Shown: piece after piece, positions 1-21,276 of the stretch | Position numbering within the stretch: position 1 is the first letter of the stretch | How the letters are laid out: each line of letters opens with the position of its first letter | DNA from: a phage | Strand: one strand, 5' to 3' | Sequence record: PZ386977.1 | DNA length: 64,000 nt | Translations under genes and position numbers: made by a program | The notes under the pieces: model-generated | Told to the model about the DNA's origin: nothing | The model's database searches: none | The model's input: the letters and a program-made list of their open reading frames with translations, nothing else

Positions 1-936
1 CTCGGTCTCGTTTTCAAGAGTGAAAATGGTCTCTAAAGGCTTCCACAGTTCTAACAAATTACCTTCAAACTTTTCAGAAGCATAAGCTTCAAGAACTTTC
101 AAAATGTAGTCGGTGCTACCTGTACGTCCTGAAACTTTGAATTGAGTGATACCAATATCATTATAAAGTTTCAAATCTTGAGGACGAACAAAACGAGTTC
201 TCAACCAGTTAAATGGGTCTGTATCACGAGCTTTAATACAGTGCTGCATTGGATATCCGTTTAAGGATTTAGCATCATCAGCTGTAACATCAGTACTATG
301 GAAAATATAGCAAGAGTCACGATAGCTACAATGTGTTGTATACCCTTTACCAGCATTAGAACAGAACTCATTTACAAGAACTTCAAATATTATATTGTTC
401 TTATTGCAAAACTCTGCTGCACGCTTCAGGAAAGAAACTGAACGGTTCTTATGAATTCCGCAACAGACTTTTTTGATGTTATATTGGTCGTGCAAGTATT
501 TGATTTGAGTTACAGCATCGACATGTAGAATTGTTGAAACTTCAATCTCAATGTCTTTATTGACTTCACGAACAATTTCCATAACAACAGGGTTAGCGAT
601 AGTAATACGCCATACGCCTATTGACCAAAGATACTGAACATAATCCTGAATAGCTTTCTTCTTCCACTCGACTAGTTCTCTTTTTGAACCAGGATTTATC
701 GTGTTGAGTGTATAGTTAAAGCAAATACCTAATTCGTTACAACGTTTAACGTAATCTTCTAACATCTTTTTGTCAACGTCAGGAAGCCTAAAATCAGGTC
801 TGGCTGCTACAAAAGCCATTTCTCTTGTAGAGCCATATACTTCGTTTATCAAGCTATTAGGATAGGTTTTATTGAGCTCTACGATTTTATCAAGAAGAGC
901 TAAATCAAAATTCGTTCCGATTTTAAAAGTATTCAT
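1..936 (-). CDS. hypothetical Cys-rich enzyme, 3' end beyond window edge (possibly U32-like TIM-barrel/Fe-S protein; tentative)
   Basis: Minus-strand reading frame from ATG at 936 runs off the window start; translation MNTFKIGTNFDL...; clustered Cys FCSNAGKGYTTHCSYRDSC; absent from ORF track because no stop in window. Confidence 0.35.
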   Translation of the reverse strand, partial: MNTFKIGTNFDLALLDKIVELNKTYPNSLINEVYGSTREMAFVAARPDFRLPDVDKKMLEDYVKRCNELGICFNYTLNTINPGSKRELVEWKKKAIQDYVQYLWSIGVWRITIANPVVMEIVREVNKDIEIEVSTILHVDAVTQIKYLHDQYNIKKVCCGIHKNRSVSFLKRAAEFCNKNNIIFEVLVNEFCSNAGKGYTTHCSYRDSCYIFHSTDVTADDAKSLNGYPMQHCIKARDTDPFNWLRTRFVRPQDLKLYNDIGITQFKVSGRTGSTDYILKVLEAYASEKFEGNLLELWKPLETIFTLENETE

Positions 937-993
937 TTTTTTGCATCTCGCGTTAATTGATGCGATGGTTTTTTGCAGGTCTTACTTAAATTA

Positions 994-1380
994 TTATAGA
1001 TTCGGTTTATATGATTTAAATGTTTCGAATTCGCCTTTATTCATAAGAGCTTTGAATTCGTCAGGACGCATAGCTTTGTCGTCGATAATCCAATCATATA
1101 CTGGTTTATGTGTTAGCAAATTATGGTACTTCAAGCCAATGTTTGCCAAGTTCTGAATCAGACTTGGGAGAATGTCAATTGCTATACGTCCAGGACCTAC
1201 TGACTTCATACCACGAGCAGTGTAAAGCGTTATGGTGTGCCCTGCATCATACAGGGCATTAATGGCGGACACCATTTCGACGTCTGGTTTGAAGTTCACA
1301 TAATCACGATTGTTATTCCATTCCGTGATGCAATCATCGACATCAAAACAAAGATTAAGCATGTTTTCTACACGGTGCAT
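994..1380 (-). CDS. HAD-superfamily phosphatase-like protein
   Basis: FDVDDCIT (motif I-like) and WIIDDK (motif IV-like); ATG at 1380 overlaps upstream stop (TAATG); track ORF 994..1395. Confidence 0.5.
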   Translation of the reverse strand: MHRVENMLNLCFDVDDCITEWNNNRDYVNFKPDVEMVSAINALYDAGHTITLYTARGMKSVGPGRIAIDILPSLIQNLANIGLKYHNLLTHKPVYDWIIDDKAMRPDEFKALMNKGEFETFKSYKPNL

Positions 1381-3065
1381 TAGATTCGTTCCCATTGATG
1401 AGTGATATCGCCACCGATTGGACGATAGGAAACACCAGTTTCTTTATCAGTTAGTACCCATTTACCAGGATTTTTTGTAATCAGAGTAGCCGTTACAGGT
1501 TCTGCTACGTCATAACTAATAGAGCCATCTTGAAGTACACGGCCCATGTTACGTAATTGCTTAGTCAGAAGTTCCATACCTTTATAATATGCGGCTACCG
1601 CTTTAAGTGGATTATTCTTGAAATAACCACCTAATGCAATCCAGATAATTGCTACTGCCAAATGATGATACTCGTTAAACGAACTCATCTTTCCATATTT
1701 GTAAACTAATGGATTGATGTTAATAGTCACATTACAAGTTGTTTCATCAATAATAAACTGACCCCAGGTCGGATTAGCATTGAATTCATCATAACCTGAA
1801 ACAGCATAAAGCACTTTAGCTTCATCATACAATTTTGGCCCGTAAATCTTGGTTTCACCAAAATATCCACGAGGGTCGATAAACTTGACTTCGCCGTTAT
1901 CAGTAATCATAGTATTACTGAAGTTCGGGTCACCATGAATAACAGAGTACTGTCCCTGAGAACGGTTATGATAACGAATAAGATGTTCTAAAGCTTGTTT
2001 CAACATTGGCTTCAGACGTCCAATCTTAGTGTAGTTCACGTGTGTGATTTTACCAAATGAATCAATCAATGGCTGAATGCTTTCACAACGATCAATAACT
2101 TTCGTATAGAACTCTTTAGTGAAATCACGGCGAACAGTTTCAGGACTTACAAAATAAGTGTCTGTGCTGAATTTCAGTGCATCTAAAATTGCATCAACAA
2201 TTTGTGGACGAGCAAGACTTGATTTGGATTTAATATATTCAAATGCCGGCTTACCTTTAATACGTTCCATTTCAAAGTTATTTTCATTAACAGAAACTAA
2301 CTGAGGGACTGAATCTGATTTCACTTTCAAATACCATGAAATCTCATCTTTCTGAAGAGCTCGACCCTGTTCGGTTAATGCGAATTTAGTTACAGTTTCT
2401 TCACCAATTTCAACTGCATTAAAACTACGATTAAGTTCACGAACTTCATGAGCTTTTTCAAGTTTAGGCATATCACCTAAATCAATTATATTCATAAGCT
2501 CTGATTTATTGAATGCGCCGCTGTAAAGGAATTCTACGAAATCACGTCCTTTGCAGTATTCATGAATTTCCTCATCAGTAGAACCCATATAGAATTCCCA
2601 GTCTTTGAACTGATAAATTCCTACAACATTACCACCTGTTGAACCTACGTTAGTGATATTTTCACCATCGAAATTATATCGACATTCATCACCCTTAACA
2701 TAGATTGCGTTAACATTCCAAGACCATGAACCAAAGTCAGGAATAATATCACACCAGTTAACAATTACGTTATGGCCATCTAAATCTTTGTATAATTTAG
2801 CAAGAGCATAAGCAGAACCATACGCTTCATCAACTGTACGAATAGTCACATTGAACCCTTCTTGCTCGCAATAAGCTCGAACAGTTTCAGCAAATTTTGA
2901 ATGAACTACTACAATAATTTCATCTGCGCCAAGGTCAGAATAAATTGTATACAAATTGCTCAGAATAGTGTCTTGTTTATAGTTAACAAGCACCTTAGGA
3001 ATATGGTGCGTTATTGGATACAAACGAGTTGCCAGTCCAGCACCAAGAATAACAGCTTTTTTCAT
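1380..3065 (-). CDS. bifunctional sugar-1-phosphate nucleotidyltransferase / sugar kinase
   Basis: 561 aa; N-terminal ILGAGLATRLYP nucleotidyltransferase G-loop; C-terminal HGDPNFSN and IDPRG kinase motifs (APH/anomeric-kinase type). Confidence 0.7.
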   Translation of the reverse strand: MKKAVILGAGLATRLYPITHHIPKVLVNYKQDTILSNLYTIYSDLGADEIIVVVHSKFAETVRAYCEQEGFNVTIRTVDEAYGSAYALAKLYKDLDGHNVIVNWCDIIPDFGSWSWNVNAIYVKGDECRYNFDGENITNVGSTGGNVVGIYQFKDWEFYMGSTDEEIHEYCKGRDFVEFLYSGAFNKSELMNIIDLGDMPKLEKAHEVRELNRSFNAVEIGEETVTKFALTEQGRALQKDEISWYLKVKSDSVPQLVSVNENNFEMERIKGKPAFEYIKSKSSLARPQIVDAILDALKFSTDTYFVSPETVRRDFTKEFYTKVIDRCESIQPLIDSFGKITHVNYTKIGRLKPMLKQALEHLIRYHNRSQGQYSVIHGDPNFSNTMITDNGEVKFIDPRGYFGETKIYGPKLYDEAKVLYAVSGYDEFNANPTWGQFIIDETTCNVTININPLVYKYGKMSSFNEYHHLAVAIIWIALGGYFKNNPLKAVAAYYKGMELLTKQLRNMGRVLQDGSISYDVAEPVTATLITKNPGKWVLTDKETGVSYRPIGGDITHQWERI

Positions 3066-3106
3066 GTTGTGGTCCTCATTGGTAAGTAGGTGTATTGTAC
3101 ACTATT

Positions 3107-3250
3107 CTAGTTAAAGCATTCATACTTTGCTTGTAGCCCAATCATAATCCATCCGATTATAAGAGTCGGAATCATTACTGGAGCCGTTAAGCTCCAGTAG
3201 ATAGTCATGACAAGCATCAATAGTAAAAGTCCTATTGTTATTGCTTTCAT
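3107..3250 (-). CDS. small hydrophobic membrane peptide (47 aa)
   Basis: ATG at 3250 overlaps TGA of upstream gene (ATGA); MKAITIGLLLLMLVMTIYWSLTAPVMIPTLIIGWIMIGLQAKYECFN; below ORF-track size cutoff. Confidence 0.35.
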   Translation of the reverse strand: MKAITIGLLLLMLVMTIYWSLTAPVMIPTLIIGWIMIGLQAKYECFN

Positions 3251-3882
3251 TGTTCGCCTCGTAACATGGCACCTAGTGAACCGCCTGGATGGAACTTAAG
3301 GAAGTCATTAGAGGTAAATCCACGTTCAGACGAAAGGTTGATAGCGAACGTATCGATAAGCGCTAACAACAATGTAGTGGACATGGTCGGAGCCAGAGAA
3401 TTCTCATCAACCTCTACCGCGATGCCTGTACAGAACGTATAATCAAAAAGAGCTTCGTATTCTTGCGGAATGTCAGGGTTACAATGTAACAGAATCTGTT
3501 TAACCTGAGGACGAATCATACGAAGATGTTTAGCAACACCTATCATTTCTTCAGTCTTACCAGAACGACTGATGTGAACTAATACATCATTAGGTGCAAT
3601 AAATCCTGCGTCGCCATGAGAATAATGCCCGGTGTTCAAATACATGCTAGGAATACCTAGTGAAGCAAAAGTCTCGGAAGCTTTAGTTGCGATATTAGCG
3701 TTCTTACCAACACCTGTAATAATTACTCGGCTTTCATAATTACTCAGTCCAGGGCGACGAAGAGTTTCAAGAATAGCATTATATCGGGCAGAGTTTTGAC
3801 TAATTACTTTAGCCATAGTGGCAAGAGATGAAGCTTGTTTTACGATTGCGTCAATAGCGATAGTGATTGGTGTAGTTTTCAT
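3247..3882 (-). CDS. SIS-domain sugar-phosphate isomerase (GmhA/KdsD-like)
   Basis: 211 aa; ITGVGKNANIA and HISRSGKTEE SIS-type motifs. Confidence 0.7.
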   Translation of the reverse strand: MKTTPITIAIDAIVKQASSLATMAKVISQNSARYNAILETLRRPGLSNYESRVIITGVGKNANIATKASETFASLGIPSMYLNTGHYSHGDAGFIAPNDVLVHISRSGKTEEMIGVAKHLRMIRPQVKQILLHCNPDIPQEYEALFDYTFCTGIAVEVDENSLAPTMSTTLLLALIDTFAINLSSERGFTSNDFLKFHPGGSLGAMLRGEQ

Positions 3883-3922: not shown

Positions 3923-6634
3923 TCAAAAATCGAACATATCGAACAGAGATGCTTTCTTCTCGTAATCGAGTTTCGCTGCTGATGTGAATCCTTCAAGTGG
4001 TTTAATAAATGTCTTCTCAAGGAGAACAGTGTAGTCCATCCAATGAAGTACGTCGTCTTTAATTAAATCTGTGATTTCAGTACCAGAAGGCCATGCGATA
4101 CATTTATCACCGAATGGGTTTCCTTCACGTAAAGGCAGAACATATACCTTTTCGCCTTCTACAACTTGTGGAGCATCAATATTACCTTTGATAGCCCGGT
4201 TATACGTCAGAATTCCACGAATATGGAACGGACATTTTGGACCAGGGAATCCACCTACATCATATTTAGCAATGTTATTCGCAGAAGATACCGACGCGAT
4301 GCTAATATAATTCAATTGACGGAATTCTTTTTCAAACTCTTTAAAATATTCTTGTAATGATTCTTCACCTTCTTGAAGCATACGACGAATACATTCTTTA
4401 AGAGCTTTCTGTACCGCTTTAGGAGTTGAAGATTTCTGTGTTTCGAGACCCATGATTTTGAGTTTAGGCTCAGCGTAACGAGTACCTTCCATATCCCACA
4501 CGTTTAATGCGTAACGTTTCTTACCAGTCCAGAATCCACCAATACCTTTAGAGCCAAGTGGAGGACCAGCGATAGCTTCTCGGTCCATGAACATTAAGTG
4601 TTGTTTATTGTTCATGTATTCACACATTTCACGGAAACCTCTATCAATAGCAGGTTCCATACGTTCACGAGCGAACTTATCTAAGAAGTCCACCCAATGG
4701 TTGGTATCACGGAATTTAGATTCACCAACCTTATCAATAATTTTATCAGCAGATACGTAAATAGAGTCTGTATCACCATATAGAACGAAAGCTTCACCTT
4801 CTGTACCACAAACTTCATTCAGATATTCATTAACTTTACGTTCAATCCACTGTAAAGCCATTTGCCCGAATGTTGTGATTGCAGTAGCATTACGCAAATC
4901 ATAATAACGGAACCAAACGTTGCCAAGTGCACCATAAAGTGAGTTGATAAGCAATTTACGGTTAATTTGTGCAGTCATACCTGCAACTTCAGTACGTTGA
5001 GCTCTAAACAACATTTCATTAAGAGATTTAGCAGACAACTTTTTAATCTTTTCTTTAATCTCATCGCTGAAGTCGAAACGATAATCAACATCTAACGGTT
5101 CGTCAACAGAAAGATTAGGATTATGCAATGCCTCTTTAATTATTTCACCATTACGTTGAGCTGCAAGCATGTAACCTTTATGTTCTTTACGTTGATTAAA
5201 GACCTTAGTGATTTCAGTTGGAACTACACCATCACGGTCTTTATAATACATCATGCCATTAGGAGAGCAGCTGTACACATCTGAAGGACGTTCAGCGATT
5301 GCGTTAATATAATCATGCAATGGAGCTACTTTAAACGTTCCTGCTATTGTTTCTGGGCTAATATTCACTTGGCGAATAATACTTGGATACAGAGATGTAA
5401 GGTCGAAACTCATTACATATTTGTATCGATTTGGAATAGGTTCCTTAACAAAAGCGCCAGGATAAGGTTGAACCGGGTGAGAACGACCTTGTGGAATCAC
5501 CTTGTTCTGCTCTTTAAGGCTATTAAAAATAATAGCATCCCATGTTTTAATTGGGCTGAACACAGATTGAATCTGTATCTTAGCATAATAACCCATGTCC
5601 AAACTCAAGTTGATGAACTGGCGCTTAGCATCAATTTGCAATACACGATACACGTCGATGATGTTATAAGAAATATATCGTTGGTGATTGCTTTCACGAA
5701 GCTTAGAAATAGGGCCGTCATATTTCAGTTTACCAACGTTCAATTCAAATTCTGAAATGTAATCCAGAGAATACGACGGTTGATTAGTAAAAGAGAATTT
5801 TTTGTAAAGGTCAATGTAATCAAGAACAGAGATACCGAACAATGTAATGATTTCACGAGAACCATACATGTTTTCGATAACTTTAACACGAGTTTTACGA
5901 TGTGGTGATAAACGTTTCGCAGTAGATTCACCAAAAATATTCTTGATTCTGTTATACACATATGGAATATCAAATGACTCAACGTTCCATCCAGTCAAAA
6001 TGACAGGAGTTTTCTGTTGCCAGAAGTTGAGATATTCCATCAACAATTCTTTTTCGTTATCGAACGGCATATAAATGATTTTATCGATAATTTCAGATGG
6101 AACTTCATCACCACCTTGTTCTTGAAGCTTAGCAGCGATTTCAATAGACCATTCTTCCACATTGCCGTATGGAGAATTCAATAGATCAAATACATAGAAC
6201 CTGTCGTCAATTGAGTCATAATGGGTGATAGCATCAATCGGATGTTTTGCTTGTGACGGCTCAGGGAACCCATCCGGAGATGTTACTTCGATGTCGAAGT
6301 TAGCCACACGAATTTTTGTATGGTCGTATTTGATTTCATAGTTATAAGTGTCAGACAAATACGCCAATTTGAAATCGTCCATGCCAAGTGCTTCAAGTCC
6401 GATATCTTCCATGCGTTTAATCCATTGGGAGGCATCACGCATATTAGCGAACAACTTACGAGTACACGGCTTACCGTAGATATCGAAATATTTCGTGGCC
6501 TGACTTTCTGGACAATGAGCAAACAATGATGGTTTATATTCTACTTCACGAGTACGTTCACGGCCATTAGAATCGATGTAACGTTCAAAAATTGAATCAC
6601 CAATCTGTTCAACCGTTAAGTAAAATTCTTTCAT
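3923..6634 (-). CDS. 43: DNA polymerase, family B (gp43)
   Basis: 903 aa; exo motif FDIEV; polymerase motifs SLYPS, KILINSLYG, YGDTDS, KKRY; N-terminus MKEFYLTVEQIGDSIFERYID matches my recollection of RB69 gp43. Confidence 0.97.
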   Translation of the reverse strand: MKEFYLTVEQIGDSIFERYIDSNGRERTREVEYKPSLFAHCPESQATKYFDIYGKPCTRKLFANMRDASQWIKRMEDIGLEALGMDDFKLAYLSDTYNYEIKYDHTKIRVANFDIEVTSPDGFPEPSQAKHPIDAITHYDSIDDRFYVFDLLNSPYGNVEEWSIEIAAKLQEQGGDEVPSEIIDKIIYMPFDNEKELLMEYLNFWQQKTPVILTGWNVESFDIPYVYNRIKNIFGESTAKRLSPHRKTRVKVIENMYGSREIITLFGISVLDYIDLYKKFSFTNQPSYSLDYISEFELNVGKLKYDGPISKLRESNHQRYISYNIIDVYRVLQIDAKRQFINLSLDMGYYAKIQIQSVFSPIKTWDAIIFNSLKEQNKVIPQGRSHPVQPYPGAFVKEPIPNRYKYVMSFDLTSLYPSIIRQVNISPETIAGTFKVAPLHDYINAIAERPSDVYSCSPNGMMYYKDRDGVVPTEITKVFNQRKEHKGYMLAAQRNGEIIKEALHNPNLSVDEPLDVDYRFDFSDEIKEKIKKLSAKSLNEMLFRAQRTEVAGMTAQINRKLLINSLYGALGNVWFRYYDLRNATAITTFGQMALQWIERKVNEYLNEVCGTEGEAFVLYGDTDSIYVSADKIIDKVGESKFRDTNHWVDFLDKFARERMEPAIDRGFREMCEYMNNKQHLMFMDREAIAGPPLGSKGIGGFWTGKKRYALNVWDMEGTRYAEPKLKIMGLETQKSSTPKAVQKALKECIRRMLQEGEESLQEYFKEFEKEFRQLNYISIASVSSANNIAKYDVGGFPGPKCPFHIRGILTYNRAIKGNIDAPQVVEGEKVYVLPLREGNPFGDKCIAWPSGTEITDLIKDDVLHWMDYTVLLEKTFIKPLEGFTSAAKLDYEKKASLFDMFDF

Positions 6635-10115: not shown

Positions 10116-10832
10116 ATGAATTATAACTCAATATACGAAAAGCTTATCACCAATGCTAAATCAAGAAGTTTAGATGGTTATACAGAACGTCATCACATTA
10201 TACCACAATGTTTAGGTGGAAGTGATGATGCTTTAAACTTAGTAGACTTAACACCAGAAGAACATTATTTGGCACATCAACTGTTGGTAAAAATCCATCC
10301 AGATAATGCCTCTTTAATATATGCTGCTCGTATGATGACCATATCATCTCCTAAAGCAGATAGAAGCAAAAACAAATTATTTGGATGGCTTCGACGTAAG
10401 AATCAGGAAGTTCAAAAGAATAAAGAATTCACTGCTGAAACCCGTAAGAAAATGTCCGAGTCTGCAAAAAATAAACCAAAGATTACCTGTCCACATTGTG
10501 GTTTAACTGGAACTGAAGGAAACATGCGACGTTGGCATTTTGATAATTGTAAACAAGGTCCAACGCCTAAAATAGTAAAATTATCTGATGATGAAAAACA
10601 GAGGATAAGTTCTAAACTTAAAACAATAGAGTGGAAACTCCACACATGTGTACACTGTGGTCTAGAAGGAAAAGCTTGCAATATAGTTCCTCATGAGAAA
10701 AACTGTAAACTTAATCCTAATAGAATAAAACCTAATGTAACAATAGTGGAATGTCCATACTGCTCTAAAAGTGGTTCTATATCAAATATGAAAAGATGGC
10801 ATTTCGATAATTGTAAATATAAGCCTCATTAA
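10116..10832 (+). CDS. HNH homing endonuclease with triplicated zinc-finger motif
   Basis: ERHHIIPQCLGGSDDALNLVDLTPEEHYLAHQ HNH core; three CPHCG/CVHCG/CPYCS...RWHFDNCK repeats; AAGGA SD before ATG; only plus-strand gene in a minus-strand block. Confidence 0.85.
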   Translation: MNYNSIYEKLITNAKSRSLDGYTERHHIIPQCLGGSDDALNLVDLTPEEHYLAHQLLVKIHPDNASLIYAARMMTISSPKADRSKNKLFGWLRRKNQEVQKNKEFTAETRKKMSESAKNKPKITCPHCGLTGTEGNMRRWHFDNCKQGPTPKIVKLSDDEKQRISSKLKTIEWKLHTCVHCGLEGKACNIVPHEKNCKLNPNRIKPNVTIVECPYCSKSGSISNMKRWHFDNCKYKPH

Positions 10833-12997: not shown

Positions 12998-14013
12998 TGT
13001 GTTGCCTCAATATAAAGTTCGTTGGAATATTTGACCAGCGCTTCTCTGTCTTCGTCTGAGATATCTGGAATCGCGTCAATATATTCTTTAATGATATCTT
13101 GAAGTGATTTAATCTCGATTTCCTGGTCGTCATCAGATTCAACACTGTTATCAACTTTAGAAACCATACGAAGAGAGTGAACTACTTTTTCAAGTTCAGA
13201 TTCAAACTTAGTCAACTCTGAATCAATTTCTGATACTATAACACGTACGGCTAGATTAGTATAATCAGAATAATTGATTTTGCCTTTAAACGGATAAGTG
13301 ATTCGTCGATGCCATGTTGTTTCATTAGGAATAAATTCCATACGTTCAACATCGGTGTCAAATACCCAGAATCCTCGAGGGTCGTTTTCATCACCTGCAG
13401 TAAGGGTCCATGGTGTCCCAATATATTTGACATTAGCAGCTTCAGAGATTGTGTGGAAGTGGCCAGACCAGACTTGTTTATAGGTCTTTAAAAAATCAGG
13501 TTCAAGCCCATGAGACTTCATTCCTTTATAGAAATAAAAACCATTCAGTTCCCAGTGCCCAACACAAAAAGAAGCAGATGAAGTTTTGATATGTTCAAGA
13601 ATTTCACCAGTATTTTCTTCGCACATCCAAGGAATTAAATCAATCAAACATCCGTCAAAATCTACTGTAGTAGGCTTATCATATACTTTAACATTAGGAT
13701 ATTTAGCTAAAAGCTCAGTAGAAGCGTTTGGAGTTAAAGTATTTTTAAAGTGCATATCATGGTTTCCTACAACAGTATGTAGGGTAATACCAGCATCATC
13801 AAGCATTTGAACTATTTCACGTGCGAACTCCATAGTTTTATGCGTGATTGCTTTTCGCACATCAAAAATATCGCCGTATTGAATCCATGTAGTAATTCCA
13901 TTTTTCTTAGAATATTCTATCGCCTGCTTAATTCCATCCAACTGAATGGATTGAACCCACTCATCATCGGCTTTAACACCTAAATGCCAATCACCTAAAT
14001 TTAAAATTTTCAT
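12994..14013 (-). CDS. 47: recombination nuclease subunit gp47 (Mre11/SbcD-like)
   Basis: 339 aa; phosphoesterase motifs LGDWH, GDIFD, GNHD, GHFH. Confidence 0.95.
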   Translation of the reverse strand: MKILNLGDWHLGVKADDEWVQSIQLDGIKQAIEYSKKNGITTWIQYGDIFDVRKAITHKTMEFAREIVQMLDDAGITLHTVVGNHDMHFKNTLTPNASTELLAKYPNVKVYDKPTTVDFDGCLIDLIPWMCEENTGEILEHIKTSSASFCVGHWELNGFYFYKGMKSHGLEPDFLKTYKQVWSGHFHTISEAANVKYIGTPWTLTAGDENDPRGFWVFDTDVERMEFIPNETTWHRRITYPFKGKINYSDYTNLAVRVIVSEIDSELTKFESELEKVVHSLRMVSKVDNSVESDDDQEIEIKSLQDIIKEYIDAIPDISDEDREALVKYSNELYIEATQ

Positions 14014-14059
14014 ATTATTTCCTCATTAGTTAATTCATTCTATCATCCGTTTATAAAGC

Positions 14060-14083
14060 AAAAAAGGAACTCCGAAGAGTTCC
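14060..14083 (-). terminator. intrinsic terminator hairpin (UUCG loop) plus U-tract
   Basis: minus-strand GGAACUC-UUCG-GAGUUCC followed by UUUUUU. Confidence 0.6.
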
Positions 14084-14256
14084 TATCCACATAGTACACC
14101 GTACAGAGGCTCATTTGAACTTTTAAATCGAATGGGCTTGTATGTAATAGTTCCTTCGGCTTTAGCTTTATCATAAGACTCTTTAAAACGTCTCATTCTT
14201 TCTGCTTTGCCTTTACGGATTTTATCGAAATTTTCAGAAGTCGGGATGTTCGTCAT
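14083..14256 (-). CDS. small basic hypothetical protein (57 aa)
   Basis: GAGGTG SD then ATG at 14256; MTNIPTSENFDKIRKGKAERMRRFKESYDKAKAEG...; not in ORF track. Confidence 0.3.
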   Translation of the reverse strand: MTNIPTSENFDKIRKGKAERMRRFKESYDKAKAEGTITYKPIRFKSSNEPLYGVLCG

Positions 14257-14295
14257 GCATAAGCACCTCTCAGAAAATGCCTAAATCGATTTCTC

Positions 14296-14517
14296 TCATC
14301 GTTTCCACCATTTCTTAACTTGAAATGAATCAACCCACACGAGTTGTTTTGGGTCTGCCTTTACAATAGGCGGACAAATTTCTGTAATAGAACCGTCGTG
14401 ATATTCCTTTTCAGAGATTTTAACGCAAAGAGGACCTCCCAATTTAAGGGTGAACCCTGCGTTCAGCTTCAGACGTTTAAACTTTGTTTGAACTAGCGCC
14501 ATTAATGATGTCCTCAA
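14296..14517 (-). CDS. hypothetical protein
   Basis: 73-aa ORF in minus-strand array. Confidence 0.45.
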   Translation of the reverse strand: MRTSLMALVQTKFKRLKLNAGFTLKLGGPLCVKISEKEYHDGSITEICPPIVKADPKQLVWVDSFQVKKWWKR

Positions 14518-14800
14518 TAGCCTGACGAGTAGTAACCCATTGGATTTTAATTAACTTGTCGTTATATGGTTGTCGTAGAATATCCCGAGATTTCTTAATA
14601 GCATATTCGTAAGCTTCGAAGTTGTTTTGAATTGCTGCTTCTTGAGCATGAGCATAAAGACGGTTTAGTTCAAAACGATTCTTTTTAAGAATCTTTTCGG
14701 ATTTTTTACGTGCTTCAGCTTCATTTTTCTTTTGGATTTCTTGTAGCATTTTAGCTACTGCATCTTCTGCTTCTTTATTTTCAATAATCTCGGTAGTCAT
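14477..14800 (-). CDS. hypothetical protein
   Basis: 107-aa ORF in minus-strand array. Confidence 0.5.
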   Translation of the reverse strand: MTTEIIENKEAEDAVAKMLQEIQKKNEAEARKKSEKILKKNRFELNRLYAHAQEAAIQNNFEAYEYAIKKSRDILRQPYNDKLIKIQWVTTRQAIEDIINGASSNKV

Positions 14801-14801
14801 A

Positions 14802-15017
14802 TTATCTCATTAAATTAAAATAAAAACGTCCATCCTCTTCAATACAGAACTCATACTCAACCGGAGTCCCATTTATCGAAAATGACACGTCATGTGGGTT
14901 CAAAGGGTCGATGTCAAAATTAATTTTAAATTCACGACCCAACAGTTTTACCAAATAAGGGATTGCTTCGTCAAAAGGTTCTTCTAAGTAGTTAGAGATG
15001 TCAATTGTCATCCTCAT
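14802..15017 (-). CDS. hypothetical protein
   Basis: track ORF 14802..15095 trimmed to internal ATG because the 5' part overlaps gene 55. Confidence 0.4.
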
Positions 15018-18991: not shown

Positions 18992-19462
18992 TTAATCATG
19001 TTTCCACACCCCATCGGTATTTGACCAAAGTCGCTGATTATCTGATCCTCGCCACAGCTTTTTGGTCGGAAGACTTTTCTCATACTTCCCATCAATAATA
19101 ACATCAACATATTTAAGCATTTCTAGTTGTTTAATATCTTCAAACTTATATCCTGTCCACAACCAAATGCTTTTATTGGGATAAAGATTTTTTACTGTTT
19201 GAACAATGCAATGAACAACATCTCGGTTATCAGGATAGAGAGGGTCTCCTCCGGTTATAGTAAATCCTTCTATATAATCATTATTCAAACATTCAATTAA
19301 TTGTTCTAGTGTCTCTCCAGTGAATGGAGCACCATTTCTAGCGTTCCATGTTGATTTATTATAACACCCTTCACATTTATGCAAACAACCTGTAACGAAA
19401 AGAACGACCCTACAACCAGGGCCATTCACAAAATCGCAAGGATAAAATCTATCATAATTCAT
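18992..19462 (-). CDS. nrdG: anaerobic ribonucleotide reductase activating protein NrdG (radical SAM)
   Basis: 156 aa; GCLHKCEGCYN cysteine motif. Confidence 0.9.
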   Translation of the reverse strand: MNYDRFYPCDFVNGPGCRVVLFVTGCLHKCEGCYNKSTWNARNGAPFTGETLEQLIECLNNDYIEGFTITGGDPLYPDNRDVVHCIVQTVKNLYPNKSIWLWTGYKFEDIKQLEMLKYVDVIIDGKYEKSLPTKKLWRGSDNQRLWSNTDGVWKHD

Positions 19463-21276
19463 TGGTGTTTAACCCTATGCATGATTTCTTTATTTTTACC
19501 GAGATTAAATCCGCGCTCGTTCGGATTTCCAAGATAACCGCATGTTCTTCTTATGGTGTTCATCTTTTTAGGATCAGTTTCTCCGCAAACTGAACAAACA
19601 AATCCATTTTCGGTAGGAGTCATTTCATGGGTACTTCCACATGTAAAACATTTATCTACTGGCATATTAACACCAAAATAATCTAAATGTTGTGCAGCAT
19701 AATCCCAGACAGCCTCAAGACCTTTTAGGTTATTTTTCATATCAGGAAGTTCAACATAAGAAATGTGACCACCTGTCGCAATGAAATGATATGGCGCTTC
19801 ACGAGAAATCTTTTCAAACGGAGTAATATTTTCTTCTACTGAAACGTGGAAACTGTTAGTGTACCAGCCTTTATCGGTAACATCCTTTACACTTCCATAT
19901 TTTTCTGTATCGAGTTTACAGAAGCGATAACAAAGGTTTTCAGCAGGAGTCGAATATAAACTAAAAGCAAATCCAGTTCTTTCGGTCCACTGTTTAAGAT
20001 GAGCATTCATTTTAGTTAAAATTTCCTGTCCAATATCACGACCGACAAGAATATTCAATTCATGAATACCAATGTATCCTAAAGACACTGAACTTCTACC
20101 GTTTTTAAATAACTCAATTATATCATCATCAGGTTTAAGACGAACCCCGAATGCACCTTCTTGGTAAAGAATAGGAGCAACAGTCGCTTTAACACCCTTT
20201 AAAGAACTAATTCTACACATCAAGGCTTCAAAACACAGATCCATTCGTTCATTAAACAACTCGATAAATTTCTGTTCATTGAACTGTGTTCCAATATAAG
20301 AATCTAATGCGATGCGAGGAAGATTCAGCGTTACAACACCGAGATTATTACGTCCATCAAGAATTTCATTACCAGTCGAATCTTTCCATACGCTCAAGAA
20401 ACTACGGCAACCCATTGGAGAAACTGGAACTGAAGAACCGGTAATAGCTTTATTATTCTTAACCGAAATAATGTCAGGATACATTCTTTTGCTTGCGCAT
20501 TCTAACGCAAGTTGTTTAATATCATAGTTCGGATCATCTTTATAAAGATTAACACCTTCTTCAACAAACATAACAAGTTTAGGAAAAATAGGAGTTATTC
20601 CATCACGACCAAGACCTTTAATGCGGTTTTTAAGAATTGCCTTCTGAATAATTCGTTCAGTCCAGTCAATTCCCGTACCAAATGTAATTGTTACAAAAGG
20701 CGTTTGTCCGTTTGAACTAAAGAGAGTATTTACTTCGTATTCATAAGCTTGGAATGCGTCATAGACATCTTTTTCTGTTTTAGATTGAGCATAATTCAAC
20801 GCATCAGCGATTTGCCATTTTTCTGCATCTTCAACATGTTTAGCGTATGTGCGTTTAACATAAGGAGAAAGTACTTTATCTACATTAGCAAAAGTCGTTC
20901 CGCCATACTGGTGTGAAGCAACTTGTGCGGTAATTTGTGCCATAATTGCAGTAGCAACTCCAATTGATTTAGGAGTTTCAATTTGAGCATTACCTAGCTT
21001 AAATCCGTTCTCAAGCATTCCTTTTAAATCTACTAAACAACAATTAGTAAATGGAAGAGCAGGAGAATAATCAATATCATGAAAATGAATAATTCCGCTT
21101 TCATGCGCTTTCATAATAAAAGACGGGACCATATTTTTGGCAATGTGTTTAGACACAATACCAGCCATAAGGTCCCGTTGAGTTGGAAAAACACGAGAAT
21201 CTTTATTAGCATTCTCGTTTAAAAGGTCTTTATTAGTTTTATGAATCAATCCTTCAATTTCTTTTTCAATTGTCAT
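19459..21276 (-). CDS. nrdD: anaerobic ribonucleoside-triphosphate reductase NrdD
   Basis: 605 aa; C-terminal Zn-ribbon CFTCGSTHEM...CSVCG and glycyl-radical region RRTCGYLG. Confidence 0.95.
   Translation of the reverse strand: MTIEKEIEGLIHKTNKDLLNENANKDSRVFPTQRDLMAGIVSKHIAKNMVPSFIMKAHESGIIHFHDIDYSPALPFTNCCLVDLKGMLENGFKLGNAQIETPKSIGVATAIMAQITAQVASHQYGGTTFANVDKVLSPYVKRTYAKHVEDAEKWQIADALNYAQSKTEKDVYDAFQAYEYEVNTLFSSNGQTPFVTITFGTGIDWTERIIQKAILKNRIKGLGRDGITPIFPKLVMFVEEGVNLYKDDPNYDIKQLALECASKRMYPDIISVKNNKAITGSSVPVSPMGCRSFLSVWKDSTGNEILDGRNNLGVVTLNLPRIALDSYIGTQFNEQKFIELFNERMDLCFEALMCRISSLKGVKATVAPILYQEGAFGVRLKPDDDIIELFKNGRSSVSLGYIGIHELNILVGRDIGQEILTKMNAHLKQWTERTGFAFSLYSTPAENLCYRFCKLDTEKYGSVKDVTDKGWYTNSFHVSVEENITPFEKISREAPYHFIATGGHISYVELPDMKNNLKGLEAVWDYAAQHLDYFGVNMPVDKCFTCGSTHEMTPTENGFVCSVCGETDPKKMNTIRRTCGYLGNPNERGFNLGKNKEIMHRVKHQ

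Follow-up and report, generated by a model that had tools for sequence, protein, structure and literature searches.

The window is the whole 64,000-nt stretch of phage record PZ386977.1 that we analysed, and it is from a Mosigvirus, an RB69-like T-even phage. At its left end a 3.9-kb block of minus-strand genes follows gene 43 (3923..6634, minus strand), which we take as the upstream boundary. The 903-aa product of gene 43 is 99.9% identical to gp43 of RB69 and of HY126, and in Bas46, RB69 and LC53 the gene carries the annotation DNA polymerase. A nucleotide search with the 3.9-kb block returned 153 phage records that cover at least 80% of the query. A chance pattern of ORFs is excluded because the block is 97–98% identical to more than 150 phage genomes; its DNA identity to Mosigvirus genomes is 98.4%. 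At the protein level, the HY126 and RB69 orthologues of the window proteins are 95.7–100% identical.

The sequence-only reading had described four genes in one orientation directly after gene 43, and we found all four on the minus strand at the positions it gave. It had also called them all translationally coupled, which is not what we see. Genes overlap at two junctions only: TAATG at 1378..1382, shared by the fusion gene and the HAD gene, and ATGA at 3247..3250, where the isomerase stop meets the start of a 47-aa ORF and not of the fusion gene. At the remaining junctions the genes are separated by gaps of 40, 41 and 57 nt. This 47-aa ORF (3107..3250, minus strand) lies inside the module and had been overlooked. 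It is hydrophobic and of membrane type, with a mean Kyte-Doolittle hydropathy of 1.37 and two hydrophobic stretches, and a Pfam search matched no family. The ORF is conserved, being annotated at the equivalent position in Bas46, HY126 and LC53, with 100% identity in HY126 and 61.7% in Serratia phage LC53.

The gene nearest to gene 43 (3247..3882, minus strand, 211 aa) is, by profiles and orthology, a single-SIS D-arabinose-5-phosphate isomerase and the equivalent of RB69 gp55. It matched Pfam SIS (9.6e-10) and the NCBIfam models KpsF/GutQ (1.1e-31) and KdsD (9.5e-30), with the SIS part of these profiles alone being matched. In the PDB it matched 3etn (1e-24) and 2xhz, the E. coli arabinose-5-phosphate isomerase (2e-18). 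It is 96.7% identical to the HY126 protein and 95.7% to that of RB69, and an isomerase role has been proposed for the RB69-type SIS protein (PMC6024577, PMC13326640).

The 561-aa fusion (1380..3065, minus strand; RB69 gp52:53) is assigned by motifs, profiles and orthology as a bifunctional AfhE-type enzyme. At its N-terminus lies a sugar-1-phosphate nucleotidyltransferase that has a GAGLATR motif at aa 8–14, a Pfam NTP_transferase match at aa 3–99 (1.3e-9), matches to NCBIfam sugar-1-phosphate nucleotidyltransferases (Arch_glmU at 1.4e-13, AglF, RmlA, MurU, HddC) and a PDB match to LicC (1jyk, 2.3e-5). It is followed by a C-terminal kinase of the protein-kinase-like/APH type, which carries HGDPNFSN at aa 377–384 and IDPRG at aa 396–400; Pfam kinase families match weakly at aa 308–409, none reaching the cut-off. 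The fusion is 96.6% identical to HY126 AfhE over its full length, and from this orthology we infer an arabinose-5-phosphate 1-kinase joined to a UDP-arabinose pyrophosphorylase. Both activities of AfhE were shown biochemically by He et al. 2026, according to Lee et al. 2026 (PMC13326640).

The small HAD phosphatase (994..1380, minus strand, 128 aa; RB69 gp51) is of AfhF type, and its aa 1–128 are 100% identical to PDB 9iqw and to HY126 AfhF. It has an FDVDD motif at aa 12–16 and matched the NCBIfam EcbF/BcbF capsule-biosynthesis phosphatase model (3.8e-13) and PDB 1xpj (5e-10). The Bas46 annotation uses an alternative upstream ATG at 1395; the start given here is that of the crystallised construct 9iqw and of the HY126 and RB69 annotations. 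By its orthology with HY126 AfhF, for which PMC13326640 cites Mg-dependent phosphatase activity, the protein would convert arabinose-1,5-bisphosphate to arabinose-1-phosphate. Assignment of the fusion and the HAD protein to nucleotide metabolism had been set beforehand as a refuting test, and the NCBIfam profiles of both point to sugar activation instead.

These enzymes can be arranged into one route. The single-SIS isomerase would turn ribulose-5-phosphate from the pentose-phosphate pathway into D-arabinose-5-phosphate, and the kinase half of the fusion would phosphorylate C1 to give arabinofuranose-1,5-bisphosphate. The HAD phosphatase would take off the 5-phosphate to leave arabinose-1-phosphate, which the nucleotidyltransferase half of the fusion would combine with UTP to form UDP-arabinofuranose. 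Arabinosyltransferases encoded beyond the window (equivalents of RB69 gp46:47 and ORF003c) would then decorate 5-hydroxycytosine in the DNA. We place the pathway steps in the window because of orthology with HY126 proteins: the window proteins are 96–100% identical to those of the kinase, phosphatase and pyrophosphorylase steps, which are reported as biochemically shown (PMC13326640).

Thomas 2018 had put forward ORF055c and ORF53_52c as genes of UDP-arabinose synthesis (PMC6024577), and Lee et al. 2026 (NAR) laid out the full UDP-D-arabinofuranose pathway via arabinose-1,5-bisphosphate (PMC13326640). Table 1 of the latter gives an older order, with dephosphorylation before phosphorylation, from which its own text differs. 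The earlier suggestion that the module makes an NDP-activated arabinose through a 1,5-bisphosphate for DNA base glycosylation agrees with that paper. A gene of the Bas46 module is annotated as 'putative enzyme involved in UDP-arabinose biosynthesis', and for Mosigvirus NP the full pathway is called 'not yet characterized' (PMC13390438).

The order of isomerase, anomeric kinase, phosphatase and nucleotidyltransferase is also that of the ADP-heptose route of Gram-negative LPS (GmhA, HldE, GmhB), and the claim that the phage builds this logic from non-orthologous parts holds by the NCBIfam profiles. Both systems have an SIS isomerase, a kinase-nucleotidyltransferase fusion and a HAD enzyme that removes the distal phosphate of a bisphosphate. 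However, the phage SIS protein is of KpsF/GutQ type and not GmhA, and the phage kinase is of protein-kinase-like/APH type where HldE has one of ribokinase type. The phage transferase is of GlmU/RmlA/MurU type and N-terminal rather than C-terminal, the phosphatase falls in the EcbF/BcbF/1xpj group (HAD-IIIA model 0.024, no GmhB model matched), and the substrate is a pentose. Given the matching logic, the EcbF/BcbF match of the HAD protein and the database labels 'phosphoheptose isomerase' and 'capsule biosynthesis protein', one could suppose that the product of the module is an activated heptose, or some other sugar of capsule type, and not arabinose. We believe that this is highly improbable. 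The SIS protein matches KpsF/GutQ/KdsD arabinose-5-phosphate isomerases with no GmhA model among its NCBIfam matches, the 'phosphoheptose isomerase' labels are mis-annotations placed on the HAD gene, and arabinose has been detected chemically in the DNA of RB69, HY126, Bas46/47 and NP (PMC6024577, PMC13326640, PMC13390438). In addition, PMC13326640 reports that AfhE and AfhF act on arabinose phosphates, and UDP-arabinofuranose is already reported as the only in vitro product for HY126.

As for the base, the sequence-only reading cited reports of arabinosylated hmC in RB69-type phages. This 2018 assignment has been revised, and the modified base is arabinosyl-5-hydroxycytosine (PMC13326640; PMC13390438). 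The T4 glucosyl-hmC system (gene 42, alpha-gt, beta-gt and host UDP-glucose) occupies the same neighbourhood, gene 43 to uvsX, and uses the same strategy, in which a ThyA homologue makes a modified dCMP that is incorporated and then glycosylated on the DNA. Unlike in T4, the canonical sites in the window hold neither alpha-gt nor beta-gt, and the base is 5-hydroxy-C, made by a ThyA homologue that depends on flavin and O2; the phage encodes the synthesis of its sugar donor because that donor is not a host metabolite (PMC13326640). The 47–55 interval (14013..15001) holds, as had been said, small ORFs only (57, 73, 107 and 97 aa; families DUF5486, DUF2654 and DUF5491) and no glucosyltransferase. 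The transferase had been placed outside the window, and tblastn with both RB69 arabinosyltransferases, ORF003c and gp46:47, bears this out (best E = 1.4 against the window). In relatives, the next 3.5 kb or so to the left contain the genes for the 5hodCMP synthase, a first arabosyltransferase and a kinase.

The module is already known and published, and the window is another member. The Afh/5ara-hC cluster of HY126, RB69, Bas46/47 and Serratia phage LC53, which hypermodifies DNA with arabosyl-5-hydroxycytosine (Mahler et al. 2025, Cell Host Microbe, and He et al. 2026, Nat Chem Biol, both as described in PMC13326640 and PMC13390438; Lee et al. 2026, NAR), has an identical gene order after gene 43 and identical pathway logic, and HY126/RB69 protein identity is 95.7–100%. 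There is no substantive difference; the window ends before the 5hodCMP synthase, arabosyltransferase and kinase genes.

The last gene (1..936, minus strand; RB69 gp50) is interrupted by the window edge, as had been noted, with the N-terminal 312 of 386 aa inside. These hold 9 Cys, and the remaining 74 aa at the C-terminus, which include a CX4CX3CX2C cluster, fall outside. Pfam (Peptidase_U32, 4.6e-11, over the cut-off) and an AlphaFold2 model (pLDDT 93.9; best PDB match the U32 protein 5d88) make it a U32-family Fe-S protein. The proposed four-gene sugar module stands for the isomerase, fusion and phosphatase but not for this Cys-rich gene, which has no evident sugar role. A 57-nt gap (937..993, minus strand) separates it from the HAD gene, and sigma-70-like hexamers (TTTAAA-16-TATAAT, 1020..993) end in this gap. 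The U32 gene may be a separate transcription unit read from these hexamers, on promoter evidence that is weak because they match a consensus and nothing more, and promoter-like sites are fewer in the region than in its shuffles.

Known U32 hydroxylases are RlhA (23S rRNA ho5C2501), TrhP (tRNA ho5U34) and UbiU/UbiV (ubiquinone), and they are O2-independent and prephenate-dependent. The phage protein shares their Peptidase_U32 TIM-barrel domain and, with RlhA, an additional C-terminal Cys cluster. Five Cys (C158, C192, C203, C209 and C233) do not vary across 74 homologues, and C203 and C209 align within a common CYIxH stretch with RlhA C169 and C176, without which ho5C2501 does not form (PMC5727448). 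The protein is very divergent from the four E. coli paralogues (NCBIfam best UbiU at 8.9e-4; hhalign 1e-5 to 7e-3), has a Cys spacing of C-x10-C-x5-C-x23-C unlike that of RlhA/TrhP/UbiU/UbiV, and forms its own phage subfamily of ~360–390 aa. Many GenBank records say 'peptidase' or 'collagenase', after the family name, and a collagenase-like peptidase is hardly credible here: U32 proteolysis has no known catalytic mechanism (PMC5727448), the invariant Cys residues form a set typical of the Fe-S hydroxylase members, and there is no reason for a protease to have chorismate mutase and DAHP synthase beside it.

In 10 metagenomic phage contigs, U32 homologues sit amid deoxynucleotide and replication genes (DNA polymerase III alpha, thymidylate kinase, dCMP deaminase, dUTPase, UDG, ThyX), and SIS, NTP-transferase or HAD sugar genes occur in none of the 10 contexts. 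Chorismate mutase makes prephenate, and its gene follows the U32 gene in 51 related phages; one metagenomic homologue adjoins DAHP synthase. Both link phage U32 to prephenate supply.

That U32 performs a sugar step in one four-gene sugar-nucleotide pathway is unlikely, although the gene is co-oriented with and adjoins the HAD gene at all U32-bearing loci of Straboviridae that were examined, RB69 gp50 is labelled 'sugar or heterocycle reductase' in Table 1 of Lee et al. 2026 (PMC13326640), and one metagenomic homologue (L014) has an NAD-dependent epimerase two genes off. Phages that infect Acinetobacter, a strict aerobe, carry the sugar genes and lack U32. In one of them, DLP1, the isomerase, fusion and HAD genes abut a ThyA-like gene, and the related phage DLP3, which has counterparts of these three genes, makes tri-arabosylated DNA (PMC13326640). 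U32 is likewise missing from the Dhakavirus phages of E. coli. Besides the lack of SIS, NTP-transferase and HAD sugar genes around the 10 homologues, no characterised U32 protein has a sugar substrate (PMC10990095), and in the reported four-step route from ribulose-5-phosphate to UDP-arabinose every step is assigned (PMC13326640). U32 is probably outside the sugar route.

The homologues and neighbouring genes point U32 to nucleobase hydroxylation and not sugar activation. The characterised pyrimidine-hydroxylating U32 enzymes all act on RNA (PMC5727448, PMC6599085) and RlhA is the best E. coli profile match (E = 1e-5), so an RlhA/TrhP-like RNA hydroxylase, tuning translation through host or phage rRNA or tRNA and unrelated to DNA modification, has to be weighed. 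We consider it quite unlikely. Neither the DUF3656 region nor the C-terminal region of RlhA is present in the phage protein, its homologues lie in DNA-replication and dNTP modules, one of them overlapped by a gene for a TET-associated DNA glycosyltransferase, and the U32 gene lies directly before the 5hodCMP-synthase gene at the inspected loci and in the features listed under tblastn matches. Its likely substrate, judging from this context, is a deoxynucleotide or DNA, not RNA or quinone.

We propose that U32 may be a prephenate-dependent, O2-independent pyrimidine C5 hydroxylase giving a route to 5-hydroxycytosine; we found no published statement of this reading. Two observations count against it: no chorismate mutase is recognisable beside U32 in Mosigvirus, and Dhakavirus phages manage without U32. 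By orthology, the cassette after gene 43 very probably supplies UDP-arabinofuranose for arabinosyl-5-hydroxycytosine DNA, with U32 standing apart and, on comparative genomics, most likely belonging with the base-hydroxylation half.

All genes in the first 6.6 kb of the window lie on the minus strand. The DNA polymerase gp43 (3923..6634, 903 aa), which shares 99.9% identity with its RB69 and HY126 counterparts, is followed by an isomerase (3247..3882, 211 aa), a strongly hydrophobic ORF (3107..3250, 47 aa), a nucleotidyltransferase-kinase fusion (1380..3065, 561 aa), a HAD protein (994..1380, 128 aa, with an alternative upstream ATG at 1395) and a Cys-rich protein, here called U32, which begins at 936 and continues past the window edge, with 312 aa and 9 Cys inside it. 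Our ORF calls reproduce the gene coordinates of the sequence-only reading, whose observation is for the most part confirmed. Because the 3.9-kb block is kept in more than 150 Mosigvirus phage genomes, at 97–98% identity, we regard these ORFs as real, conserved genes.

The same reading held that the genes are all translationally coupled, which is not what we see. Overlaps occur only at the fusion/HAD junction (TAATG) and at 3247..3250 (ATGA), and the other gaps are 40, 41 and 57 nt. The ATGA couples the isomerase to the 47-aa ORF, which had been overlooked and whose ATG overlaps the isomerase stop. This ORF is present in HY126 (100% identity), Bas46 and Serratia phage LC53 (61.7%), was not found in Acinetobacter phage DLP1 or Dhakavirus QL01, and is likened in the RB69 record to the T4 42-imm intercistronic region. 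Scans for promoters and terminators returned sites no more numerous than in shuffled sequence.

The isomerase matches the NCBIfam models KpsF (1.1e-31) and KdsD (9.5e-30) and the PDB entries 3etn (1e-24) and 2xhz, E. coli KdsD (2e-18), and is 96.7% identical to the HY126 protein. On these matches we assign the 211-aa protein to the KpsF/GutQ/KdsD arabinose-5-phosphate isomerases, as a single-SIS-domain member. The fusion is a full-length orthologue of HY126 AfhE, with 96.6% identity over 561 aa. Its N-terminal domain matches Pfam NTP_transferase (1.3e-9) and NCBIfam models of the GlmU, AglF, RmlA, MurU and HddC types, which identify it by homology as a sugar-1-phosphate nucleotidyltransferase; the C-terminal half is kinase-like, with the motifs HGDPNFSN (HGDxxxxN) and IDPRG and weak matches to APH-like kinase families. 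The HAD protein falls in the EcbF/BcbF capsule-phosphatase group (NCBIfam, 3.8e-13) and is 100% identical to HY126 AfhF and to the solved structure PDB 9iqw. In several records the HAD gene is wrongly annotated as "phosphoheptose isomerase". An assignment of the fusion and HAD proteins to nucleotide metabolism, as NT5C or tRNA nucleotidyltransferase, was ruled out by the NCBIfam profile matches, which favour sugar activation.

The pathway to which these enzymes belong has been described. Thomas et al. 2018 detected arabinose in the DNA of RB69 and proposed ORF055c and the ORF53_52c fusion, in the module between gene 43 and uvsX, as UDP-arabinose genes (PMC6024577). The Bas46 annotation likewise has a "putative enzyme involved in UDP-arabinose biosynthesis". 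Lee et al. 2026 identified the modified base of RB69 DNA as mono- and di-arabosylated 5-hydroxycytosine rather than hmC, and showed the gene-42 homologue to be a 5-hydroxy-dCMP (5hodCMP) synthase that depends on flavin and O2, the O2 requirement coming from 18O2 labelling (PMC13326640). In the sugar route, gp55 converts ribulose-5-phosphate to arabinose-5-phosphate, the kinase half of gp52:53 makes arabinose-1,5-bisphosphate, gp51 takes this to arabinose-1-phosphate and the transferase half of gp52:53 yields UDP-arabinofuranose (PMC13326640). The kinase, phosphatase and pyrophosphorylase steps go back to the HY126 AfhE/AfhF biochemistry of He et al. 2026, as it is cited in PMC13326640. PMC13326640 and PMC13390438 report arabosylated 5-hydroxycytosine in virion DNA for RB69, HY126, Bas46/47 and NP.

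The guess that the module makes arabinose via a 1,5-bisphosphate was correct, and this is the published route, with window proteins at 96.6% (AfhE) and 100% (AfhF) identity. The wider interpretation stands only in part: its core, an arabinose donor, is right, the base it named is outdated (5-hydroxycytosine, not hmC), and the fourth gene was wrongly included. By homology the three sugar genes are the UDP-arabinofuranose arm of the already known Afh / 5ara-hC cluster, and the window is a rediscovery of it. The sugar module is settled science, to which the window adds one more Mosigvirus carrying it. The transferase had been placed outside the window, and a tblastn search of the window with RB69 ORF003c and gp46:47 gave only E > 1. 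In Bas46, HY126, RB69 and LC53, the ThyA-like 5hodCMP synthase and the DNA arabosyltransferases lie directly left of the equivalent position; as the window ends inside U32, the ThyA-like and arabosyltransferase genes of this genome would fall beyond its edge.

Two known systems resemble this module. None of the GmhA, HldE and GmhB models of the ADP-heptose pathway is among the NCBIfam matches of the window's sugar proteins, which instead match KpsF/GutQ, GlmU/RmlA/MurU-type transferases, EcbF/BcbF and, weakly, APH-like kinases. Judged by these profiles, the module is an analogue of the ADP-heptose pathway in its logic and not a member of it. In contrast to the T4 glucosyl-hmC system, the relatives put an arabosyltransferase, not beta-gt, beside the gene-42 homologue. 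No T4-type alpha-gt was found between genes 47 and 55, and the observation that this interval holds only small ORFs is borne out, as it contains just four, all of DUF families. Gene 46 (AAA_23/SMC_N) and gene 47 (Metallophos) were identified by Pfam, and gene 55 only by position against the Bas46 annotation. On the opposite (plus) strand, between a gene 45.2-like ORF and gene 46, there is a 238-aa ORF (10116..10832) with no Pfam family and only a sub-threshold zinc-ribbon match. Bas46 has no gene at this site, and the two flanking genes there are just 55 nt apart. A mobile or homing-endonuclease-type gene may have inserted here.

The fourth gene is a different matter. It had been read as part of the sugar module, but it encodes a U32-family protein (Pfam Peptidase_U32 PF01136, 4.6e-11, 42.9 bits against a cut-off of 22.4), and it does not fit the sugar route because the four reported steps from ribulose-5-phosphate to UDP-arabinose leave none for it. 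Lee et al. label the RB69 equivalent, gp50, a "sugar or heterocycle reductase" and nothing more (PMC13326640). A PDB sequence search found no solved relatives of U32. Its AlphaFold2 model (pLDDT 93.9) has as its top Foldseek match in the PDB 5d88, the only U32 structure, and beyond that match there are just generic TIM barrels.

An alignment of 74 U32 homologues at 50–88% identity shows five invariant cysteines (C158, C192, C203, C209 and C233). With hhalign, U32 aligns to RlhA at E = 1e-5 over 206 columns, and C203 and C209 fall on RlhA C169 and C176; MAFFT with the E. coli paralogues disagrees, and we prefer the hhalign register, which is not certain, because both pairs lie inside a common CYIxH stretch. 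RlhA needs both of these residues to form ho5C (PMC5727448). C203 and C209 of U32 are probable counterparts of Fe-S-cluster-binding residues of RlhA, and a cluster is predicted. Matches of U32 to UbiU and TrhP are weak (hhalign probability 6–11%), which gives RlhA a mild preference only as the closest relative.

U32 and the sugar genes have different distributions. There are 374 phage records with the fusion gene, 57 of them from Acinetobacter phages, and 222 with U32, for which the organism names listed are all Enterobacterales or Shewanella. In Acinetobacter phage DLP1 the isomerase, fusion and HAD genes adjoin the ThyA-like gene and there is no U32; the related Acinetobacter phage DLP3, which has counterparts of these three genes, makes tri-arabosylated DNA (PMC13326640). 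Dhakavirus QL01 also lacks U32. In that phage (record L005, 5062..10151) imm is kept after gene 43, and fusion, HAD, kinase, ThyA-like and glycosyltransferase genes are present. It has no SIS isomerase, so it presumably takes arabinose-5-phosphate from the host KdsD or GutQ. Across genera U32 keeps 82–89% identity, and the neighbouring fusion protein only 42–73%, which points to unusually strong constraint on U32 or to its recent horizontal spread. In LC53 a putative endonuclease gene (record L003, 5352..5990) is inserted between HAD and U32, and because of this insertion the junction is consistent with being the border of two functional units.

Chorismate mutase accompanies U32 in many genera, which is indirect evidence for a dependence of U32 on prephenate. 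The product of this enzyme is prephenate. In Entb_45 (Enterobacter) and LC53 (Serratia), the gene that separates U32 from the 5hodCMP synthase and directly adjoins both encodes a chorismate mutase of type II (Pfam CM_2, 2.4e-10 and 1.7e-11). Homologues were found in 51 phage records from at least 11 host genera, and where features are given the neighbours are U32 and/or ThyA-like genes. The Mosigvirus slot after U32, about 0.1–0.4 kb left of the window, instead holds a 79-aa ORF unrelated to chorismate mutase (RB69 ORF049c; record L001 5540..5779 in Bas46, record L007 9287..9409 in HY126), and the HY126 copy is shortened to 40 aa, as if decaying. We considered whether this ORF is a diverged chorismate mutase and rejected that at the sensitivity used, as there was no Pfam match at E = 10 and BLASTP against the Entb_45 protein gave E = 6.9.

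A protein search returned 268 U32 homologues, mostly metagenomic and at about 50–58% identity, and we inspected ten independent contigs around such genes. All ten have phage-like replication or nucleotide modules, with DNA polymerase III alpha less than 7 kb from the U32 homologue in eight and thymidylate-kinase or dNK-type kinases in six. A dCMP deaminase is present in three (overlapping the U32 start in one), UDG in four, dUTPase in two, and ThyX and NT5C in one each. Genes for an isomerase, a sugar nucleotidyltransferase or a sugar phosphatase are missing from all ten, and so is a thymidylate-synthase homologue within 7 kb of U32. On contig L014 (7001..8891) the U32 homologue is followed by the gene for DAHP synthase, with which the pathway to prephenate begins; this match is at 2.6e-70, against 2.9e-17 for KDO8P synthase. 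On contig L016 (7001..9000) the gene of a TET-associated DNA glycosyltransferase (PF20691, 4e-8, above the cut-off) overlaps the U32 homologue, and genes for dUTPase/DCD and UDP-galactopyranose mutase lie nearby. We count these as two more independent links, to prephenate supply and to glycosylation of a hydroxylated DNA base respectively, and the two phages may make hydroxylated or glycosylated DNA bases so far undescribed.

A radical SAM/SPASM gene recurs near the U32 homologue (L011, L012, L017, L018 and L023). Uncharacterised proteins are also recurrent: one of about 327 aa sits between the radical SAM/SPASM gene and U32 in L017 and L018, and similar ones of 334, 307 and 338 aa come immediately before U32 in L016, L021 and L022. 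L012 encodes, after its radical SAM gene, a second U32-like protein that is only faintly recognisable (PF01136 1.4e-4, TrhP 0.0037). The recurrent radical SAM/SPASM neighbours and this second protein suggest, by analogy with UbiU/UbiV, a two-subunit U32 enzyme with a maturase.

We tentatively propose, with a good measure of doubt, that U32 founds a phage-specific subfamily of prephenate-dependent, O2-independent pyrimidine C5 hydroxylases acting on deoxynucleotides or DNA. Prephenate is the oxygen donor of characterised U32 enzymes, UbiU/V among them (PMC10990095), and pyrimidine C5 hydroxylation is known from TrhP, which makes ho5U in tRNA (PMC6599085), and RlhA, which makes 5-hydroxycytidine in 23S rRNA (PMC5727448). 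The phage U32, as an Fe-S, prephenate-dependent enzyme, would add the 5-OH to cytosine without O2, at the nucleotide level or in DNA. RB69-like phages would gain from it an anaerobic 5-hydroxycytosine route, a backup in the anoxic gut for the flavin- and O2-dependent 5hodCMP synthase. As Mosigvirus has no recognisable chorismate mutase, U32 there would depend on host PheA and TyrA for prephenate. In other phage lineages U32 may be the sole hydroxylase making the handle for DNA glycosylation, for example beside the TET-associated glycosyltransferase.

The proposed doubling of 5hodCMP synthase by U32 is the same as that of the phage's own NrdAB and NrdD. The anaerobic ribonucleotide reductase NrdD is in the same window (19459..21276, minus strand, Pfam 1.4e-170), so in other respects the phage is prepared to make DNA under anoxia. 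E. coli pairs UbiI/H/F with UbiU/V and TrhO with TrhP, which is again the same doubling. U32-bearing phages infect facultative anaerobes, and the strictly aerobic Acinetobacter hosts pair with phages that lack U32. However, this correlation is imperfect, as there are Dhakavirus phages of E. coli without U32. We found nothing relevant on U32, prephenate or chorismate mutase in phage DNA modification in the literature, with He et al. 2026 and Mahler et al. 2025 outside the scope of that search.

The published 5hodCMP synthase needs O2, yet these phages infect enteric bacteria in a gut with little oxygen. If the proposal is true, a U32 hydroxylase with prephenate as its oxygen source would explain how hypermodification can take place there. 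The U32 hydroxylase family would then have its first member directed at DNA, and since the subfamily is common in the replication modules of uncultured phages, it would be a marker for new hydroxylated or glycosylated DNA bases in them. Such DNA modifications decide the sensitivity of a phage to restriction, CRISPR and type IV systems, and this sensitivity bears on the choice of therapeutic phages.
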